From positions 1-43,946 of the IMG/VR virus record IMGVR_UViG_3300005263_000077: a stretch of 43,946 nucleotides of DNA; one strand, written 5' to 3'. How positions within the stretch are numbered: position 1 is the stretch's first letter; every line of letters begins with the position of its first letter. The position numbers and the translations under genes are program-made. Positions 4,665 through 17,906 of this stretch are shown here, in pieces. The notes beneath the pieces are model-generated. The model searched no databases and had not been told where the DNA came from. It saw only the letters and a list, made by a program, of their open reading frames with translations. Source of the stretch: a virus. Lineage: Duplodnaviria; Caudoviricetes.

Positions 4665-7493
4665 TTAACTTTTCCGCTTTTTTCGCATCGGTTTTAGCGC
4701 ATCTGCAACCAGCCCAATAGTCATTTTCTCATACAAATCAAATAAATACTGAACTCTATCAAGCTCATTTGTAAAAGGTTCTTTTCGATAGCATTTATCT
4801 ACGGCAGCATCAAGTACCTTATGGGCCTTACGCAGGATCGCAGGCATTGTCAGTGGATCATAAAGAGTAGCTAATGAAGATCCAGAGAACTGTGCGCGTA
4901 TATTAAGAACGCTCTGTGCAGCTACCTCTACTGCTTCTTGATGTGCCTTCGTAAGTTCGGCAGGCCAAGGGTAATTATTATAGACTAATCCATTAGAGTA
5001 CCGGTAATCACTTTTTAGGCGCCCACATACTTGCCGCATCCAAGCCATATGCATATGTGATTGAAGTATTCCAAAATGATAATATGTTGCTCCAGGTATA
5101 ATAAGGTTTAGATTACTTGCTATTACATCTGGTTTCATAAAGCCTATAGGGATATAATCTCGCCTTTCAGATGAAACCGATGGAATCAACAAATATTCAG
5201 TTTCTTCGTGGCTAATGAATGCAAATAGGTATGGAATTTGTGCTAACTGTCTCGTTACTTCTCGTTTACTTGACAACCGGAACTGCCTTACTTCTTCAAG
5301 TCGCTTTCTTATAAAGCTTGATTTTAAAATTTTTTCAGGATCAGCATCGAGAAGCCATAAGCAATATCGTGTTTTATTATTAATAAACTCATCTGCTCCA
5401 ATATAAGGCCTAATATACTTGCTTATTGATGGCTCATCTTGTAATACCTTCTCACATTCTTCCTCAGATAAAATCAATCCTCCACCATCAATTGGTTGAT
5501 TCCCAAATTTAATCTGCGGCACTTTACATATTGGTGAATTTGCATTTCTTATAATAAGATTTCGTGAATCTACAAGATAAGGATTAATGTTTTTTGCTGA
5601 ACGAGCAATAGCCTCGCCTTTTATATCTGGATAATCATAAATAACCTTACTTTGTCTATCATAAATAGCGAATCCTATGATTACACAATATACAGCGGCA
5701 ACACCTCGCGCTTCATTCATCCATTTGAATGTTCTATGCGCAAAATTTATTCGAGAACCTTTTACGAGAAGATAACTCCACAGAATTCCAACCTGTTCAC
5801 CTTGTGTAATAGAATTTGTAGATACAAAGGCACATTCAATAGTTGTTCCTTGTATATAATCAATTGCTTTTACATACCATGCAGATACAAGATCAAGAAG
5901 CGCATAATTTTGAACATGCCCCATTGCGTATTCAACATCTGAGCGCTGATCCAGAGTCAGCATTTTTGAACCTACAAAAGGCGGATTTCCAATAATGTAA
6001 TTAAGCTTTTCAGGAGAGATTATCTCTTTCCAGTCAAGGCGTAAAGCATTTCCACATATTATATGTGGTGTAGAAGTCAATGGAAGATGGACAAAATATT
6101 CAACAAATTCTTCAGAAAGACGTACGTTCATCAAGTGGTCCATAATCCAAAGCGCCGTTCGGGCTATTTGCGCAGGGAATTCTTCTATTTCGATTCCATA
6201 CATATTTTCAACATCAATACCTCGATAACGATCAAGATCCAAATACTTCTGCTTTTCAAGCCGTTGAATTTCCTTATGTGCTTCAATTTCTAAAATTCTT
6301 AGTTCTCGATATGCGAGTATAAGGAAGTTGCCACATCCACATGCAGGATCGAGAATACGTGTAGTTCTAATCAGCTCAAGAAAAGAGTTCAATTTCCCAA
6401 CATTTCCACGAGCCTTTTTTAATATTTCTATATATTCATCAAGAAAAAGTCCATGAATTGTCTTCATGATGTTCTTTTCACTTGTGTAATGAGCCCCCAA
6501 ATTTCGCCGTGCTTCAGCATCCATGACTGATTGAAAAAGACTACCAAATATTGCTGGCGATACACGACTCCAATCAAAATGACAACATTTCATAAAAATT
6601 GCTGCCATTTCCTTATTAAAAGCTGGAAGCGGTAATATCTCTGCGAATAGTCCACCATTAACATATGGAAGTAAGGAGATTTCTGTATCGAGGGTCTTCA
6701 TCCTTCGCTCATAAGGAGTATTCAATATTTGGAATACCTGAGCGAGAAGCGGTCCTAAATCTCTTCCATCCTCATGCGTATGAGCCTCAAGAAGCCATGA
6801 AAATTGATCCCTTGGAAAAATACCAGTGTCATCAGCGAAGAAGCAGAACATTATGCGAACAAGGAAAAGCTCAAGCTCATGCCCTATATAGCCGGCATCT
6901 TTCAACTCATCATGCAAGGCTCCCATGAGTTCCGCCGCTTCTATGTTTACAGGGTCTTCTGTCTTATATAATTTTTGTTCATATCCAAGTATAAAATTGA
7001 ACCTATGAAGATTTTCATAAAGCGCTTCAAGAGGAAACTCTGTGTAAAGCGGAGTTTCACGGGCTTGATCAATTCTCATTTCAACAAAATCAAGTTGTGC
7101 TCCAGCTGCCCGATATGCAACTAAATCCATGATCCTAAATCGAGCAAAATCAGAAACAATTATAAACCTTGGAAGTTCATCTTCTTTTAAGCTACCAGAA
7201 ACACAATAATCAAGAGCTTGCGTTAATGCCTTGTCAAGGTTTTCTCCACGGCTTTTATGTTCAACAAGAAGAGTGCCAGGCCAAAAATAATCAATAAATC
7301 CAACAGTATCCCGCAAAGTTTTTGCTCTTGCTTCAAATGCTCCTATGCGTTTAGAGGAAAGTCCAAAAATTGCAAAAAAGTCATTCCAAAATATTTGTTT
7401 TTCACTATTCTCACTCGAATCGTTTGCATGTTCATGAGAAAACTCTATTGCACGATGTTTTAATTCATTAGGAGTAAACAATTTGTCCTCCAA
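4665..7493 (-). CDS. MmeI-family Type IIL restriction-modification enzyme (nuclease + N6-adenine MTase + TRD)
   Basis: EKQIFWNDFF / FIDYFWPGTLLVEHKS nuclease domain; GAHYTS, LDPACGCGNFL, GNPPF; CGRLKSDYRYS...YNNYPWP C-terminus; AT-rich. Confidence 0.92.
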   Translation of the reverse strand: MEDKLFTPNELKHRAIEFSHEHANDSSENSEKQIFWNDFFAIFGLSSKRIGAFEARAKTLRDTVGFIDYFWPGTLLVEHKSRGENLDKALTQALDYCVSGSLKEDELPRFIIVSDFARFRIMDLVAYRAAGAQLDFVEMRIDQARETPLYTEFPLEALYENLHRFNFILGYEQKLYKTEDPVNIEAAELMGALHDELKDAGYIGHELELFLVRIMFCFFADDTGIFPRDQFSWLLEAHTHEDGRDLGPLLAQVFQILNTPYERRMKTLDTEISLLPYVNGGLFAEILPLPAFNKEMAAIFMKCCHFDWSRVSPAIFGSLFQSVMDAEARRNLGAHYTSEKNIMKTIHGLFLDEYIEILKKARGNVGKLNSFLELIRTTRILDPACGCGNFLILAYRELRILEIEAHKEIQRLEKQKYLDLDRYRGIDVENMYGIEIEEFPAQIARTALWIMDHLMNVRLSEEFVEYFVHLPLTSTPHIICGNALRLDWKEIISPEKLNYIIGNPPFVGSKMLTLDQRSDVEYAMGHVQNYALLDLVSAWYVKAIDYIQGTTIECAFVSTNSITQGEQVGILWSYLLVKGSRINFAHRTFKWMNEARGVAAVYCVIIGFAIYDRQSKVIYDYPDIKGEAIARSAKNINPYLVDSRNLIIRNANSPICKVPQIKFGNQPIDGGGLILSEEECEKVLQDEPSISKYIRPYIGADEFINNKTRYCLWLLDADPEKILKSSFIRKRLEEVRQFRLSSKREVTRQLAQIPYLFAFISHEETEYLLIPSVSSERRDYIPIGFMKPDVIASNLNLIIPGATYYHFGILQSHMHMAWMRQVCGRLKSDYRYSNGLVYNNYPWPAELTKAHQEAVEVAAQSVLNIRAQFSGSSLATLYDPLTMPAILRKAHKVLDAAVDKCYRKEPFTNELDRVQYLFDLYEKMTIGLVADALKPMRKKRKS

Positions 7494-11255: not shown

Positions 11256-11729
11256 TCAACTTCCAGGGGAAGCGGCGATCTTTCCATGTTCAACAAAGCT
11301 GTAGGAGCCATACTTCCCGATGATGAGGTGATCCAGGATCGGGATTCCCATGACATCACCTGCATCTCTTAAGCGTTTGGTGATTTCAATATCTTCCATA
11401 GAAGGTTCCACCGAGCCTGATGGATGGTTATGGGCAATGATGATCGCCACGGCATTATCCTTGATCGCTGCCCGGTACACTTCCCTGGGATGGATTAGGG
11501 TCTTGTTTACCAACCCTTTCGTTACCGTATGTGTCTTGATAGCCTTATGGGCTCCATCGAGGCTTATCACGATGAAATGCTCCTGGTTTCGCCTTGCGAA
11601 TGATGCCAGGAGCTTCACGACATCCTTAGGCTGCTTCACCTGTACTTCCGAGACAATCCTTGAGATTGCCCCGCCGTAGTTACCCTTTTCGAGCATCGAC
11701 AGGACTTCCGATTTGTCAGACTCGTTCAA
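11256..11729 (-). CDS. radC: RadC-like JAB domain protein
   Basis: QEHFIVISLD, HPREVYRAAI, AHNHPSG...PSMED, ILDHLIIG; TTG start after GGAGG. Confidence 0.9.
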   Translation of the reverse strand: MNESDKSEVLSMLEKGNYGGAISRIVSEVQVKQPKDVVKLLASFARRNQEHFIVISLDGAHKAIKTHTVTKGLVNKTLIHPREVYRAAIKDNAVAIIIAHNHPSGSVEPSMEDIEITKRLRDAGDVMGIPILDHLIIGKYGSYSFVEHGKIAASPGS

Positions 11730-11893
11730 TTCTCCACCTCCCATACATCTAACACTCTTTTAAGAGCCTTTAGCTTCAAAACTGACCCAAGAAACTCTCT
11801 TGTACCTCCTGGCGTGACGCCATAAACCTGTTGCCCTTCGACCAGCATCATGAAGATGCCAAGGCCGAACCTGTAGTACATGCCGACTACCAT
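11726..11893 (-). CDS. 55-aa hypothetical protein (not in ORF track)
   Basis: AGGAGG RBS, ATG 11893; stop overlaps radC TTG start. Confidence 0.55.
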   Translation of the reverse strand: MVVGMYYRFGLGIFMMLVEGQQVYGVTPGGTREFLGSVLKLKALKRVLDVWEVEN

Positions 11894-12011
11894 TGGTGAG
11901 ACCTCCTAATTCCTTTCATTAAAAGATTTTTCGCAAAACAGTAAAAGAAAGTAAGCTTAATTCATTATTTGATTATGAAATAATGCAGATTCGAATCTAA
12001 CATTTTTACTA

Positions 12012-12040
12012 TTGTCAATATGGCTTTTATTGATTACACT
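12012..12040 (+). promoter_or_regulatory. sigma70-like promoter for sRNA
   Basis: TTGTCA-N17-TACACT. Confidence 0.6.
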
Positions 12041-12046
12041 TATCTC

Positions 12047-12113
12047 AGCTTATCTACCTGGTGTAGACGGAGTATTCGGAGCCGCCCCTTAAAAGGCGGC
12101 TCTAGCTATTTTT
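12047..12113 (+). ncRNA. Candidate ~65-nt sRNA convergent with the DUF3800 pair
   Basis: AGCU/AGCU closing stem; hairpins UCUAC-CUGGU-GUAGA and GAGCCGCC-N8-GGCGGCUC; U tract at 12109-12113. Confidence 0.55.
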
Positions 12114-12584
12114 ATGCATATAATCTAAATATTCTTGTTGAAGCCTCTCATGGCGATGCGACTCTTCAATGCAATAAGCAGTACAAAGCATATAGTAATC
12201 TCGTCGAATCCCTAAAACGACTAAATACCTTAGTTCAGGGATGTATATCAGTATACGTTCTTCACTCTTTCTATGGTTCTTCCAGATCCAAAGGCCATCC
12301 GAATCATCATGCTCAATGATAGGTCTTGGCCACCTAATTCTTTCACAGCGACTAATTTCAATATTTCTACTTTCTTCAATATCGCCTGAAGAAACCAGAT
12401 GCCAAAATGACTTCTCCTTCCCTTCTGATATCGGTTCTCGTCTTCGATGAACAGGAACATCTCGAAACCTTACTTCATTAAAAATAAAATCATCTTGATA
12501 ATAGCCATAAACGATTTCAAGAAATGTTTCCCAAATTCCACAAGCATCTTCCAAGAGGACCAATTCTGGTAGCCAGTCAATCAT
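12102..12584 (-). CDS. P1 RlfB-like protein (predicted RelE/PBECR-like RNase fold)
   Basis: FWHLVS, RCERIRWPRPIIE, YLVVL...LCTAY motifs; coupled to the DUF3800 gene. Confidence 0.65.
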   Translation of the reverse strand: MIDWLPELVLLEDACGIWETFLEIVYGYYQDDFIFNEVRFRDVPVHRRREPISEGKEKSFWHLVSSGDIEESRNIEISRCERIRWPRPIIEHDDSDGLWIWKNHRKSEERILIYIPELRYLVVLGIRRDYYMLCTAYCIEESHRHERLQQEYLDYMHKNS

Positions 12585-13287
12585 CTAAATCTGCCTTTTT
12601 AGAGCGCCATATTAGAAGATTTATTTTTTTTGCTTTATAGAGGGTATTATTCATTAAAGTGTATCCTGAACGCTCTCTTATTCGTTCAACTATTTCAAGC
12701 TTCCCAGAGTTGCTACTGAGCTGTCGATGTAAATAGCTTAATGCTCCTGTAAGCACATCGGTAAGCTGAATAATGGCAACCTGTTTAGAATTAACTAGCT
12801 GTATATCTTTGATAATGTCCCGAGAAAAATCATAATAGCTATTGCAAAGCACTTCATGAAGTTTCTGAACCCTCTCGCCGCCTCTAGTATCTTTATAATC
12901 GAGGAAAATTTTATAATCTGAATCTGGTTCAAGGATATTTTTTAGCAATGTGAAAAGCATTTTGTAATACCATTCATCATGAGTTTGATGAAACTCAGTA
13001 TGATTCAATATCTTTTTGTCGGGAATAATGACTCCACGAAAATGTAAATCGTCATTATCAAAGAAATAATCGATGATATCGTAGTAGAGTTTATAATGGT
13101 TTGCGGAAATTTTAGTCCACTTCAGCTCATAATCCACACCTAGTCCGTACTTAGCTTTAATCTCTTTTATTCGACGATTTACTTCTTTCACTTCCCCAGC
13201 CGAACACCAGACTGCTCCGAGGACCATAACATCTATACCATCATGTTCAAGATGACAACTTTCATCACAATAAATATTATAACTCAT
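12577..13287 (-). CDS. DUF3800 family protein (P1 RlfA-like, RNase H-like acidic motifs)
   Basis: IYCDESCHL, ELKWTK, IQLTDVLTGA. Confidence 0.85.
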   Translation of the reverse strand: MSYNIYCDESCHLEHDGIDVMVLGAVWCSAGEVKEVNRRIKEIKAKYGLGVDYELKWTKISANHYKLYYDIIDYFFDNDDLHFRGVIIPDKKILNHTEFHQTHDEWYYKMLFTLLKNILEPDSDYKIFLDYKDTRGGERVQKLHEVLCNSYYDFSRDIIKDIQLVNSKQVAIIQLTDVLTGALSYLHRQLSSNSGKLEIVERIRERSGYTLMNNTLYKAKKINLLIWRSKKADLDD

Positions 13288-13293
13288 CGACGT

Positions 13294-13322
13294 ATTTTAT
13301 AGCCGCAGGCCCCTTCAAGCAA
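13294..13322 (-). promoter_or_regulatory. Promoter giving a probably leaderless DUF3800 mRNA
   Basis: TTGCTT-N17-TAAAAT ends 7 nt before the ATG; no Shine-Dalgarno. Confidence 0.55.
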
Positions 13323-13344
13323 GCGAAAACGCTACTTACTGATA

Positions 13345-14655
13345 ATGCTACAGCCCCGGACTCGAACCGAGCGACAACCCTATGCTGTAGCACGGACTAA
13401 TCCTATCTGGATGATAGGCAAGCCCATTGAAGCTATTTGTGGCCTAACGACTGGCCCATTCGACCCACTATGGCTCTTTGGTACTCCCCTCTTCGTATGG
13501 TGTCCCAGGCTAGAAGTTTCCTGCATCCTCTAGACGTGGACTGACCCTACAATTCGCCTTCGCGCAAGGTGAATCGGCACTTAAGCGCCTGACCCATTCC
13601 GACTACATAGCGCCACAAAGTGGCTGCCCCGTCGGCTCGGATCGCCCACTACCCCTAGCAACCGCAGGATACTTCCAGCCTGTTCTACCATACAAAGCTC
13701 TCAACGCTCATCGCGCATATCAAGGACGCTAACCTATTACGGGTATGAAGAGACTTACCCTATTGCATGGTGACAACACTACAACTGTATCCCTATGGAG
13801 CAAGATCCATGCCTATAATGGGAGACTACGGGCTTGCCGATGGCGTGCCAGTCTACGCGAAAGCATGAGCCATGCCAATTTATGGGAATTGTAGCTATAC
13901 AATCCGAAAGCCTATGAATACATAGTGCTTTCTATATATCGATTGCCCGTAAAATTGCCCTATTGAGTGAAAGAAAAAATCGAGACTACGCCCTATAATT
14001 CAAGACTTTCTGAGCTTCCTTGTGCAGCGTGTTTTTTGCCGTTGCCGATGCTTTCAATACGTCGTCAAGCGTTGAGTGTTCCGTGATATGCCTATAGCAG
14101 GTCAAGAAAGGCCCTTTCGCTATCTTTCCGGCTTTCCTGTCGAGTACATAGCCTTTCACGACGTTGAAGGCTTCTATATCACTTCCCGCGGATTTTATGA
14201 GATTCACGGCTTTCCTAGTGCTCGCCTTCCTGCTTCCATATCGTGCCGCGCTTTGCGCTACGGCTTCCGGCTTTCCTGCCTGTATGCTTGCCATGAGAGC
14301 GGGAAGCATTGCTTTCATAGTATCTGCGACGATTGAAGAAATAAGCTTTTCCATTGCGATATTGTCCATATATATGCCCCTTTGTGTTGATTTTTAGGGC
14401 AATTATATAGGCAATCGATAAACTTCCTTCCTTAGTGGTGGCGGGTCAAGCTTTCAAGGTTCGGCAAGCATGGCGCGGGCTTTCTATAAAGCCCCTTGAT
14501 TGAACGCATTTCACTGCGCGGGAAAGATAGGACACTTCCCTTTCTACGGTCGCCCTTGCGTACTAGACTGCAAGACTATCCGCAACGTGTCACGGCTTTA
14601 CGTGACGGCTTGTAAAAGAACATATATCGTGAATCTTTCTCTATCGTTTCACGAT
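13345..14655 (-). ncRNA. Large ornate structured RNA (GOLLD/ROOL-like size and context) with embedded ORF and 3' tRNA-like T-arm
   Basis: More than 12 stems found by eye, including 13495-13524/13664-13693 (25 bp), 13937-13962/14395-14420 and 13832-13840/14461-14469. Terminal 9-bp stem encloses GGUUCGAGUCC. Promoter at the 5' end. Confidence 0.7.
13986..14369 (-). CDS. 127-aa Ala/Lys-rich basic protein embedded in the structured RNA
   Basis: AAAGGGG RBS; ORF bracketed by 26-nt inverted repeats. Confidence 0.7.
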   Translation of the reverse strand: MDNIAMEKLISSIVADTMKAMLPALMASIQAGKPEAVAQSAARYGSRKASTRKAVNLIKSAGSDIEAFNVVKGYVLDRKAGKIAKGPFLTCYRHITEHSTLDDVLKASATAKNTLHKEAQKVLNYRA

Positions 14656-14712
14656 AATATTACCTTATCAGCCATTTAGAATCATGTCAAATGATTTGTA
14701 TCGTTTTACGAT
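14643..14712 (-). promoter_or_regulatory. Leftward sigma70 promoter (TTGACA-N17-TAAGGT) flanked by two ATCGT-N3-ACGAT palindromes
   Basis: -35 at 14690-14685, -10 at 14667-14662; palindromes at 14643-14655 and 14700-14712. Confidence 0.7.
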
Positions 14713-14965: not shown

Positions 14966-15187
14966 ATGGCATATAAAGCTTCGAGCGATAAAGTGTACGT
15001 AGGTCTCAAGCTTCCAGAAAAAAACTTCACCCTATTGGATACCTTAGTAAAAACTGATGGTGGGTCTCTTTCTGGTTATATCAATGAAGCTATCTTTGAT
15101 TGGCTAAAGGCAAAAGGACTAGAGCCGGAGGCCTTTGTAGATGGCCGTACAGGGAAATGGCTAGTGAAGAGGGAGAAAGCCGAGTGA
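14966..15187 (+). CDS. Ribbon-helix-helix (CopG/Arc-like) regulator
   Basis: VYVGLKLP alternating beta strand, then two helices (SLSGYINEAIFDWL); GGAGG RBS. Confidence 0.75.
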   Translation: MAYKASSDKVYVGLKLPEKNFTLLDTLVKTDGGSLSGYINEAIFDWLKAKGLEPEAFVDGRTGKWLVKREKAE

Positions 15188-15729: not shown

Positions 15730-15765
15730 TAATATTAGAATTAATAATGATAATACGGAGGATTT

Positions 15766-16419
15766 ATGAAAAAGAGTGTATACTATATTCTTATAATTTT
15801 ATCTACTATTATCATTCAATCATGTGCAACACTTGTTAGTTCTGAGATAACAGTTTTTCATGATATTGATAATTATCAAAAAGATAAGGTTTTCTGTATA
15901 TTCCCTGTTCAAGAGCAAAAAGGATCTCTCGAATTTAATTATTATGCAAATATAATAAAAAGTGGGTTAACTGAAAGAGGCATGACATTCACAGATAATA
16001 TTGATAATGCAAATATTATATTACTTTTTAGCTATGGTATTACTGATGGAAAAGAAAAGACAGGATCATTACCAGTTTTTGGGCAAACAGGAATATCAAG
16101 TTCATCTTCAACATTTAATTTTTATAATAGAGGTGGAAATACTACAGGTAATATTTCAACGATCAATAATCCATCTTATGGTATTATAGGCACAAGACAA
16201 TATAGCTATACAGAATATGGAAGATATTTATGGATTGGAATGTTTGACAAACAGTCTCTTGTTGATAATAATGTAAAGCAACTATACAACGCAACAATAA
16301 TCAGTGTTGGTAGTGCAAGTAATATTAAAGAAGTATTGCCAACAATGATAAAGTCATTTTTTACAGTATATCCTGGTATAAATGGGAAAGTTGAGAATAT
16401 TACATTAGAAAAAGAGTAG
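15766..16419 (+). CDS. DUF4136-like lipoprotein (moron)
   Basis: MKK + hydrophobic stretch + IQSC lipobox; very AT-rich. Confidence 0.7.
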   Translation: MKKSVYYILIILSTIIIQSCATLVSSEITVFHDIDNYQKDKVFCIFPVQEQKGSLEFNYYANIIKSGLTERGMTFTDNIDNANIILLFSYGITDGKEKTGSLPVFGQTGISSSSSTFNFYNRGGNTTGNISTINNPSYGIIGTRQYSYTEYGRYLWIGMFDKQSLVDNNVKQLYNATIISVGSASNIKEVLPTMIKSFFTVYPGINGKVENITLEKE

Positions 16420-16541
16420 CCATAGTAAGATTTATTGTTCAACCAATTATTAGGATTTAACTTGTTTTTGCATTAGTTTTGCATTCTATGTTAAAAGTGC
16501 ATTAAATATAATTAGCGCATTATTCAAGGAGGCATTATCCA

Positions 16542-17021
16542 ATGGAAACTAAAACTGGAGTAAAAATATTTTTTATAATTCTCGTATTGTTATGGATAAT
16601 TTTTGCACTTCCTCCATTATATAGTAGTGGTGGTGAAAGTATAGGTGGTGATCTGGCAATCTTAGTATTAGGAATCATCACACCAATTGGCCTTACTGTT
16701 GCTTTAACTATATCAATAATAAATGATATAAAACATAATAACGAAAAAGCAAAGGAAAAAACAAAAAAAGAAGAACATGCTGAAAGGCAAATATCTTTAA
16801 CAAGAAATATTCTAAACATTGTTGCGAAAAGTTCAAAACCTTTATCTGTTTATGATTTTATGATGCAGATTCAAGAGACAGAAGATAATATTGAGTCAGA
16901 ACTGGAGCATTTTGTAGAAAAAGGATTAGCAGAGAAAATAGCGAATGAAAAAGGCCTTACCTTATATAAATTTTTATTTGCCTCTTCTGACATCGAACAA
17001 AACGATGAAAAGAATAATTAG
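16542..17021 (+). CDS. Membrane protein, 2 TM + C-terminal winged helix (moron)
   Basis: Two hydrophobic segments; ILNIVAKS..LSVYDF...ELEHFVEKGLA wHTH pattern. Confidence 0.65.
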   Translation: METKTGVKIFFIILVLLWIIFALPPLYSSGGESIGGDLAILVLGIITPIGLTVALTISIINDIKHNNEKAKEKTKKEEHAERQISLTRNILNIVAKSSKPLSVYDFMMQIQETEDNIESELEHFVEKGLAEKIANEKGLTLYKFLFASSDIEQNDEKNN

Positions 17022-17030
17022 GGGGTATTA

Positions 17031-17504
17031 ATGCCTATAAAGTTTAGTGCCTCGGAAAAACTAGCTAGAATAGAGTATATTTATAAGAAGCTGAAACAGC
17101 TAGAAGTAAATAATGGCAATACAATTTCGACATCTGAAGCAAAAGACTTAGCTGAAGAGTTTTTTACTCATTGTTATCATCTTAAAGATTGGATTAAAAA
17201 AGAAAGACCTGATTTACATAAAAGTGTAGAAAAGTATGTAAGTAGCTGCAAAGCACTTTCAATAAGTGCTGATTATTGCAATACTTTCAAGCATGCAGGC
17301 TTAAATAGGAAAATGAGATCGGATTCTCCCATTGAAAAAGTGAATCAGCATACAAAGATTGACCTAACCCCAAGTGGTTTTATTACTTCTGCCGAAGCAA
17401 CTGTCACAATTGGCGATATTACTTTTCGAATATCCGATTTAGCGCTTGAGTGTATAGAAGCCTGGAAAGTGTATTTCATAGATAATCATATAGACATATT
17501 GTAG
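17031..17504 (+). CDS. Hypothetical protein, HEPN-like helical fold (moron)
   Basis: FFTHCYHLKDWI...DYCNTFKH motif. Confidence 0.55.
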   Translation: MPIKFSASEKLARIEYIYKKLKQLEVNNGNTISTSEAKDLAEEFFTHCYHLKDWIKKERPDLHKSVEKYVSSCKALSISADYCNTFKHAGLNRKMRSDSPIEKVNQHTKIDLTPSGFITSAEATVTIGDITFRISDLALECIEAWKVYFIDNHIDIL

Positions 17505-17906
17505 TCTTTAACTTTTAACCTGGTCATTTATCTTGCTTATAAGTTACCCAAAGCAAGATTAAGTCGTATTCCCTCGATTTATACTCGCAATTCCTTAGGT
17601 GCCTTTGTCCGATCGAAAACTTATCAAAAGTGAATTGACACGTTCAGCAGATTAACGCTCTTATATACACCGAGAACCTACATGTGTATTTTACTTATAC
17701 TACATAAGAGACGAATCGATAACTTTCCTCCGTCTCCAGAGGGCTTCGCTAGCGCTCAGCACGACTACGGAAAGAAAGATAGCCAGATTATCTTTAGATA
17801 GAGGAACAAAAGGCCTTTAAGCACCAAGAAGTGGTCAGGTCCACTTTCTCCATGCTCAAGGAGGTAGAGTATACATTTGTGTTGCATTGCAACACATCGG
17901 AGTATA

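Follow-up and report, generated by a model that had tools for sequence, protein, structure and literature searches.

What the large ornate RNAs of phages do is a question of long standing. GOLLD and ROOL occur in prophages and consist of a 5′ and a 3′ region joined by a variable linker, GOLLD being reported to rise on lysis (PMC12286853); the accounts in PMC12286853, PMC12990946 and PMC5737381 describe two domains, optional helices and assembly into cages, which in the description given in PMC12286853 are empty but for the disordered linker, with no protein partner named as known for ROOL. The locus considered here raises the question of whether a stem-rich stretch of phage DNA encodes an RNA of this kind, and what a gene lying within that RNA might be doing there. 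The window, by which we mean the whole stretch of 43,946 nt that was analysed, is a complete provirus (43.9 kb) whose genes include, according to family searches, those for a P22-like portal, a terminase and an integrase. An earlier note, made from the letters alone, had placed on its minus strand a large RNA that was either a divergent member of GOLLD or ROOL in a probable spirochaete phage or a new class. The host assignment is borne out: homologues of the embedded open reading frame (ORF) carry the labels uncultured Spirochaetota or Spirochaetales, and a terminase 95% identical to that of the window is found on a Spirochaetia genome contig. Our verdict on the element itself is that it represents a real, uncatalogued RNA family of the ornate phage kind, with an embedded, probably gated gene and optional modules (Table 1).

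Table 1. Features of the RNA element and its surroundings, in positions of the window.
Feature	Position	Strand	Basis or detail
Exchangeable cargo, DUF3800 / PDC-M04A-B candidate defence pair	12102..13287	-	outside the RNA element
Minimal tRNA mimic, 47 nt	13346..13392	-	acceptor-like stem, 12-nt linker with conserved GG, T-stem, UUCRA loop
Variable-sequence hairpin just before the tRNA mimic	13393..13427	-	64% identity, pairing kept
3′ domain II, long stem, multibranch domain and candidate pseudoknots	13440..13760	-	homologue alignment
Eight empty module sites	13452..13989	-	after 13989, 13785, 13757, 13666, ~13650, 13603, 13476, 13452
3′ domain I, multibranch, near-invariant capping hairpin 13823-13854	13762..13932	-	helices 1-8, 97-100% paired
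3′ arm of the ORF-enclosing stem	13937..13962	-	404/407 cells paired over 24 pairs
127-aa basic protein without known family, in the loop of a 26-bp stem	13986..14369	-	19 homologous clusters
Switch arm, pairs with the ORF RBS and AUG or with 13937-13962	14395..14420	-	both pairings across loci
5′ RNA domain, conserved core and closing helices round a variable middle	14424..14621	-	covarying helices
Second operator (14643-14655), at the predicted start site, within the first hairpin of the earlier note	14625..14656	-	
Sigma-70-type promoter, TTGACA, 17 nt, TAAGGT, TG before -10	14662..14690	-	kept across loci
Upstream operator-like palindrome ATCG-N5-CGAT	14700..14712		exact copy
73-aa divergent gene, likely ribbon-helix-helix (RHH) repressor of the RNA promoter	14966..15187	+	Atlas and Pfam

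Homologues were collected with ORF queries, which gave 10, 17 and 11 loci in three scans. The resulting alignment holds 18 distinct sequences including the window, with re-fetched contigs, identical copies and one recombinant (L014) left out, and 15 of the 18 span the 3′ domains. A block from about 14690 to 13341 is conserved as a unit in these 18 distinct loci, all of one Spirochaetota-infecting phage family; indeed in one relative (L002) conservation covers exactly 14690-13341, at 91% identity, the DNA being unrelated on both flanks. Compared with the window, the 5′ core (14560-14621) has a mean identity of 88%, the variable middle (14450-14559) 59%, the tRNA mimic 93% and the promoter region 55%, and the non-coding 3′ domains (81-85%) are better conserved than the ORF (75%). 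The recombinant that was set aside has a 3′ part identical to L003 and a promoter region like that of L004. Searches further afield returned little: blastn against phage and plasmid collections gave no matches to the element, GTDB contigs searched by the ORF gave none, and 122 genomes of a candidate host order yielded three weak matches only, short and by chance. Scans with 17-mers and 19-mers brought up 4 and 20 new contigs, respectively, all of them chance matches, whilst a pattern scan for the tRNA mimic matched only seven contigs, all previously known. One distant homologue of the ORF protein was found (P0051, E 6e-18). Nine terL contigs and one genome contig carry at most 2.7 kb of upstream DNA, too short to score presence or absence. 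As far as these searches reach, the known range of the RNA is a single phage family, those for distant members having given chance matches only.

Every stem drawn in the earlier note occurs on the minus strand of the window sequence, including 25 of the 30 pairs of the long stem 13664-13693/13495-13524. The 3′ stems had been taken from the window alone, before any homologue comparison, and in the 15 homologues their 89 pairs are 86% paired, with 23 changed on both sides, a result reached in 0/500 shuffles. A curated structure is 97.5% paired, with compensatory changes in 31 of its 138 pairs (again 0/500 shuffles), although the 15 sequences are related and fall into two clades, and the structure was picked on the same alignment, so that the counts lean towards it; slid controls pair at 34-42% for this structure and at 30-42% over both sets of stems. 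Two of the proposed hairpins are present in the window but less well kept elsewhere, 13795-13810 being 71% paired in homologues and not upheld as conserved, and 13551-13575 having an outer stem that is 59% paired. The same holds for the long-range pairs on which a kissing or pseudoknot interaction had been proposed: the 9-bp pair (14461-14469/13832-13840) is paired in 55/99 cells and stays mostly intact in no more than 4 of 11 loci, whilst the 7-bp pair (14468-14474/13869-13875) is paired in 49/77 cells across loci. Judged on this alignment both pairs are lineage-specific, and the interaction is not conserved. An advantage in folding energy over shuffled sequence was found for the 3′ part (621 nt; -244.5 kcal/mol, z -5.7, 20 shuffles) but is weak for the 5′ part taken alone (276 nt; z -1.7, with 13/200 shuffles equally good). 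As to strand, G-U outnumbers A-C by 144 to 17 cells in the homologues, which favours the minus strand as had been claimed, in a count that shares its bias with the choice of the curated structure, but folding energy in the window is strand-neutral (z -4.1 sense and -4.4 antisense, 15 shuffles). A T-loop and the exchange of GNRA and GAAG tetraloops among homologues also point to RNA. The structured element is real, and is predicted to be an ornate folded RNA of about 1.3 kb.

Within this fold, 3′ domain I shows compensatory changes in 13903-13895/13770-13762, and the variable hairpin that precedes the tRNA mimic shows them in 5 of its 15 pairs. Apart from the ORF stem, no helix between the 5′ and 3′ domains shows covariation in the homologue alignment, and one such pair (14593-88/13775-70) was rejected as it is broken without compensation in homologues. 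Three pseudoknots (13753-47/13494-88, 13577-69/13468-60 and 13853-47/13455-49) are compatible with 97-100% of cells, and they remain unproven candidates because no pair has changed on both sides. Four near-repeats of TGGGYC (13597-13590, 13469-13460, 13459-13452 and 13429-13422) can compete for the strand 13577-13569, where local and long-range pairing both fit all variants; they may constitute a second switch or a means of intermolecular pairing.

The element had been described as a non-coding RNA flanking one small ORF. That ORF is a genuine gene and belongs to the structure: it is found, with a conserved RBS, in every locus, and dN/dS of 0.10-0.35 in 10/10 pairs indicates purifying selection. 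The protein has a pI of 9.8, and its homologues fall at 63-100% identity. It has no Pfam, PHROG or NCBIfam family, no match in the Atlas or among PDB sequences and none in the viral structure library at E<=0.001, and a fold search of 48,161 chains gave no clear match (best Z 4.4). Sequence changes in the 26-bp stem that encloses the gene mostly preserve pairing through G-U. The 5′ arm of this stem can also form a local hairpin covering the RBS, which is found in 18/18 loci at -12.7 to -17.9 kcal/mol (z -2.6 to -5.6 when the RBS side is shuffled) and shows matching changes in two pairs of loci (L009/L010 and L023/L026). The long-range duplex of the ORF stem, at -30 to -39 kcal/mol in the 16/16 loci having both arms, is the stronger form by 13-26 kcal/mol, a figure that sets a hairpin energy against a duplex energy. 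The arm is predicted to be a folding switch over the ORF translation start, under which the ORF would likely be translated only after polymerase has passed it.

The promoter proposed for the RNA (TTGACA-N17-TAAGGT, 14690-14662) keeps its spacing in 18/18 loci: TTGAC[AG] is present in all of them, followed after 17 nt by a -10-like hexamer (displaced by one base in L017), whilst the sequence of the spacer drifts. Only two exact copies of ATCG-N5-CGAT occur in the 43.9-kb window, where 1.26 are expected by chance, and both flank this promoter. The second is an inverted repeat in some loci and a direct repeat in others, with a lineage-specific spacer. It overlaps 14625-14656, which had been drawn as the first hairpin of the RNA; the hairpin is present in the window but is better read as a DNA operator, and we infer that the RNA is a repressed early transcript. 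The divergent 73-aa gene gives an Atlas feature match of 0.94 to a cluster with 38% RHH_1 members, and its homologues give weak Pfam RHH matches (E 0.05-0.24). Its allele tracks the spacer type of the operators, in seven matching groups over 17 loci (14643-14712; grouped by eye). This may be a natural series from which a repressor-operator code could be read, though simple linkage may also account for it.

At the other end of the element, the 9-bp terminal stem and T-arm recognised in the earlier note were confirmed. The mimic, which has neither D arm nor anticodon arm, is present in 11/14 loci that reach that point, with compensatory changes in both stems, and conservation ends directly after it; no terminator-like site was seen at the mimic or the element's 3′ end. 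ARAGORN called 0 tRNA or tmRNA genes in the window and did not call the mimic, and a tRNA or tmRNA gene was rejected on this result and on the presence of only acceptor-like and T arms. The element also holds a GAAAGUCC-like word, which we take to resemble a motif of RNase P RNA; an RNase P-like RNA was rejected, the word not being conserved among homologues. The closest counterpart is found in mascRNA and menRNA, where a tRNA-like element with a T-loop and a conserved GG for the elbow lies at the 3′ end of a long RNA, and the elbow of mascRNA is described as recognised by RNase P and RNase Z (PMC11693755). Stacked acceptor and T stems, a T-loop and a conserved GG for the elbow are likewise found here in 11/14 loci, and on this analogy the mimic is likely to be a processing signal. 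It differs from mascRNA and menRNA in belonging to a phage of bacteria, in being smaller, with neither a D stem nor an anticodon-equivalent stem, and in having a hairpin, not a triple helix, in front of it, and its cleavage is a prediction. That it is missing from L005, L007 and L010 shows the mimic to be dispensable or replaceable.

Relatives of the window carry inserts of 30-43 nt at eight fixed sites, all after the ORF, each insert made of two triloop-rich hairpins that are usually joined by one C, and all in the same orientation. The window and L013 have none of these modules, whilst L004 and L017 have six each. Close sisters differ by the precise presence or absence of modules (the window and L002; L017 and L024), and one module type occurs at sites 1 and 3 and another at sites 1 and 2, with at least 90% identity over the aligned part. 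Triloops account for 44/55 predicted module loops (29 distinct but related strings), many being GNA or TTT with C-G closure, and several match GCGNAGC, a DNA mini-hairpin of phage origins and promoters whose tetraloop form is described as much less stable as RNA (PMC13037366). AG stands immediately 5′ of the insert at 6/8 sites (null P ~6e-4, in a post hoc test); the junctions are uneven, with 2/8 sites lacking AG and 3′ ends that vary. TAG density at the element is the highest among 542 stretches compared. Modules were seen nowhere else in 148 kb of phage loci or in the viral collection, and in 0/122 genomes of the candidate host order, a set to which the true host genome does not belong; a Y1 transposase (PF01797) and a reverse transcriptase (RVT_1) were lacking in 5/5 phage records. 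REP elements and other miniature palindromic elements derived from IS200-IS605 are short hairpin units with clean ends and often GTAG or TAG at the foot. The modules resemble them as short hairpin units present or absent with clean ends, but have no copies outside the RNA and no Y1 transposase in the phage records, and consist of two hairpins joined by one nucleotide and starting at the junction. Slippage between short direct repeats at the hairpin feet explains their loss. The natural series from none to six maps the surface sites at which additions are tolerated, and the origin of the modules could reveal a new insertion mechanism.

Comparison with known families began from Infernal searches against Rfam, in which nothing reached gathering score over the window and nothing meaningful appeared to E 10, either over the region, its 3′ half or the homologue L012. 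The GOLLD model (RF02032) matched 0/5 phage records at E<=1 (its control found 1/14 genomes, below the cut-off), the ROOL model (RF03087) matched 0/5 at E up to 1 (a search that had no positive control), and neither matched to E 10 when two homologues were scanned whole or in parts. Hairpin 13823-13854 holds a GACUG/UAGUC pair that we take to be P7-like; a group I intron was rejected on the lack of an Rfam match and of an upstream P3 partner, and a group II intron on the lack of an Rfam domain match and of RVT_1 in 5/5 records. The idea of a divergent GOLLD or ROOL is thus unsupported, since neither model matched and the window holds no tRNA gene, whereas that of a new class agrees with the absence of an Rfam match and of any description in the open-access papers searched. 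The likeness to GOLLD and ROOL is nevertheless considerable: a large prophage RNA with a multi-junction fold of >500 nt, a conserved 3′ and a more variable 5′ domain, a variable linker between them, and optional helices that differ between members. A provirus location is shared with GOLLD, but GOLLD lies near or contains tRNA genes, against 0 tRNA genes in the window. Unlike in either RNA, a protein gene under selection and under a predicted folding switch here forms the linker, the element ends in a minimal tRNA mimic and lies in no tRNA island, its range is one phage family, and stereotyped modules that recur at several sites make up its optional helices. A gene within a larger structured RNA is also known from the intervening sequences of 23S rRNA in Coxiella and Leptospira, in which an S23p ORF of similar size lies in the loop of a 26-28-bp stem with 1-2 imperfections, the 28-bp form being an RNase III stem (PMC4990558); excision by RNase III is plausible here too. 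There, however, the host RNA is rRNA, of which the window gave no Rfam match, and the present protein, which has no Pfam family, has no S23p/IVP match, whilst its ORF evolves under purifying selection, keeps its RBS and is missing from none of the loci found. In the type I toxin mRNAs hok and aapA1, a nascent hairpin hides the RBS and is later replaced by a long-range pair (PMC5416894); the switch is similar, but the predicted effect of the long-range pair is here to expose the RBS, not to maintain its occlusion; the encoded protein also differs from a small membrane peptide, and no antisense RNA was seen.

With a selected protein gene sitting where GOLLD and ROOL have their linker, the reading that we prefer, at a probability of about 45% and by analogy with those RNAs, is that of an early phage RNA-protein scaffold, in which the RNA would assemble with the basic protein that it encodes and play a part like that of GOLLD and ROOL. 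It is supported by the block being kept as a unit while its flanks turn over, by the covariation, by the switch in 18/18 loci and by a basic protein under purifying selection. The promoter, the operator pair and the RHH-like gene would keep the RNA repressed in the lysogen and turn it on at induction. The arm 14420-14395, which comparison shows can cover the RBS and AUG, would do so while the RNA is nascent and would exchange this pairing for the stronger 26-bp stem after polymerase has moved beyond 13937, so that protein would be made only from a transcript completed past the ORF, uncoupled from transcription and loading in cis. Cleavage by RNase P at the 5′ foot of the mimic would release the large RNA from the downstream cargo and early genes, with hairpin 13393-13427 as a predicted protective stem capping its new 3′ end. 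By analogy, the strands compatible with pseudoknots could let the 5′ and 3′ domains pack together or oligomerise, the ORF loop taking the place of the variable linker of GOLLD and ROOL. The optional modules would enlarge the surface, with recombination spreading them and slippage between short direct repeats removing them. Conservation, fold, gene and a switch-capable sequence are observed, and expression, processing, binding and assembly are what the scheme would add to them. Against the scaffold stand the 3/14 loci that lack the tRNA mimic, module loops that resemble DNA mini-hairpins rather than RNA loops, the position of the RNA as first unit of an operon that has no further conserved promoter, which fits a role in cis equally well, and an analogy to RNAs whose own function is unknown. 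The switch, the promoter with its operators and the candidate processing signal offer handles on binding, translation, cleavage and assembly.

Its main rival is a leader acting in cis on the early operon, in which RNA and basic protein modify polymerase for read-through over the cargo into radC and anti-restriction genes. What gives it this place is that the conserved genes downstream have an RBS at their start but no conserved promoter, the conserved block beginning exactly at that RBS in 9/9 aligned loci. Lambda N/nut and HK022 put provide models of antitermination, and the element is indeed the first unit behind a repressed promoter, encodes a protein that is small and basic, and is separated from the next genes by 0.3-3.5 kb of cargo, sometimes antisense. 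We nonetheless consider a cis leader unlikely: the RNA antiterminators known to us are far smaller than this element, 600 nt of conserved fold come after the ORF, a cut of the RNase P type would detach the RNA from polymerase, and a scan of the window's cargo found no strong minus-strand terminator. The layout of an ORF in a stem loop is also intron-like, and a catalytic RNA that cuts and joins RNA or DNA at AG, excising the ORF loop or moving modules with a maturase-like protein, would account for the precise empty alleles, the AG 5′ of the inserts at 6/8 sites (a post hoc count), their single orientation, the same module at two sites and the extreme TAG density; moreover, several sites carry AGUC, which could pair with the near-invariant GACUGG at 13853. 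Such an activity is distinctly doubtful, given the lack of any Rfam intron or ribozyme match and of a reverse transcriptase or Y1 transposase in 5/5 phage records, the uneven junctions (2/8 without AG, variable 3′ ends), and direct repeats at the hairpin feet that give precise loss without an enzyme. Held in the same low regard is the bolder form of this idea, a self-remodelling RNP gene that would make its partner protein only after folding, be cut free by the mimic and, as RNA plus protein, insert and excise the two-hairpin cassettes at AG sites within its own gene; if true, it would leave phage lineages with different combinations of arms.

The preponderance of triloops (44/55), many with C-G closure, and the GCGNAGC mini-hairpin of phage origins and promoters (PMC13037366) would suit a reading in which much of the structure is a signal in single-stranded DNA, acting in priming, recombination or insertion, with the modules as non-autonomous HUH/REP-type mini-elements in a tolerant region. 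GTAG at the hairpin foot is reminiscent of REP elements. This we hold to be improbable, since the T-loop mimic, the tetraloop exchange and the RBS switch make sense only as RNA, and modules were seen nowhere else in the DNA surveyed. A metastable RBS hairpin that is replaced by a long-range pair can prevent early translation (PMC5416894), and the element might simply be an mRNA with delayed translation, as for type I toxins, whose product is harmful or sets timing, the remaining fold serving stability and processing only; this is very improbable for a soluble, basic protein of 127 aa rather than a short hydrophobic peptide, with no antisense gene seen and ~900 nt of conserved fold, far beyond what is needed. 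Finally, size, prophage location and two-domain layout would fit a very divergent, ORF-interrupted GOLLD or ROOL, a proposal made barely credible by the lack of a model match (Rfam to E 10; the two models to E 1, that for ROOL without a positive control) and of tRNA genes nearby.

The RNA element, whether scaffold or not, lies between the divergent RHH-like gene and terS on one side and, on the other, cargo followed by radC and early genes. The DUF3800 cargo next to it is swapped for unrelated genes, or missing, in the homologues examined, and a DUF3800-associated RNA was rejected since that gene is exchangeable in relatives; a reading as attP was rejected with the integrase 29 kb off, at the provirus end. 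Two cargo hot spots are apparent, one (11917-13340) between the RNA and radC, which in relatives holds unrelated, often defence-like genes (PDC-M04, an Old/AriA-like ATPase, HEC-06), and a second (15730-17700) between terS and terL. A GC-rich hairpin (12078-12103) directly after the DUF3800/PDC-M04B pair has no Rfam match and could represent either a terminator or a small RNA of the DUF3800 type. Further along, a 55-aa ORF (11726-11893, minus strand) overlaps the start of radC, its DNA being strongly conserved from the RBS onward in 9/9 aligned loci, and the early operon includes an MmeI-type (type IIG) restriction-modification gene (4665-7493, minus strand). In the cargo-free locus L012 (4060-4330), some 300 nt with repeated GAAA-loop inverted repeats lie between the tRNA mimic and the next RBS.
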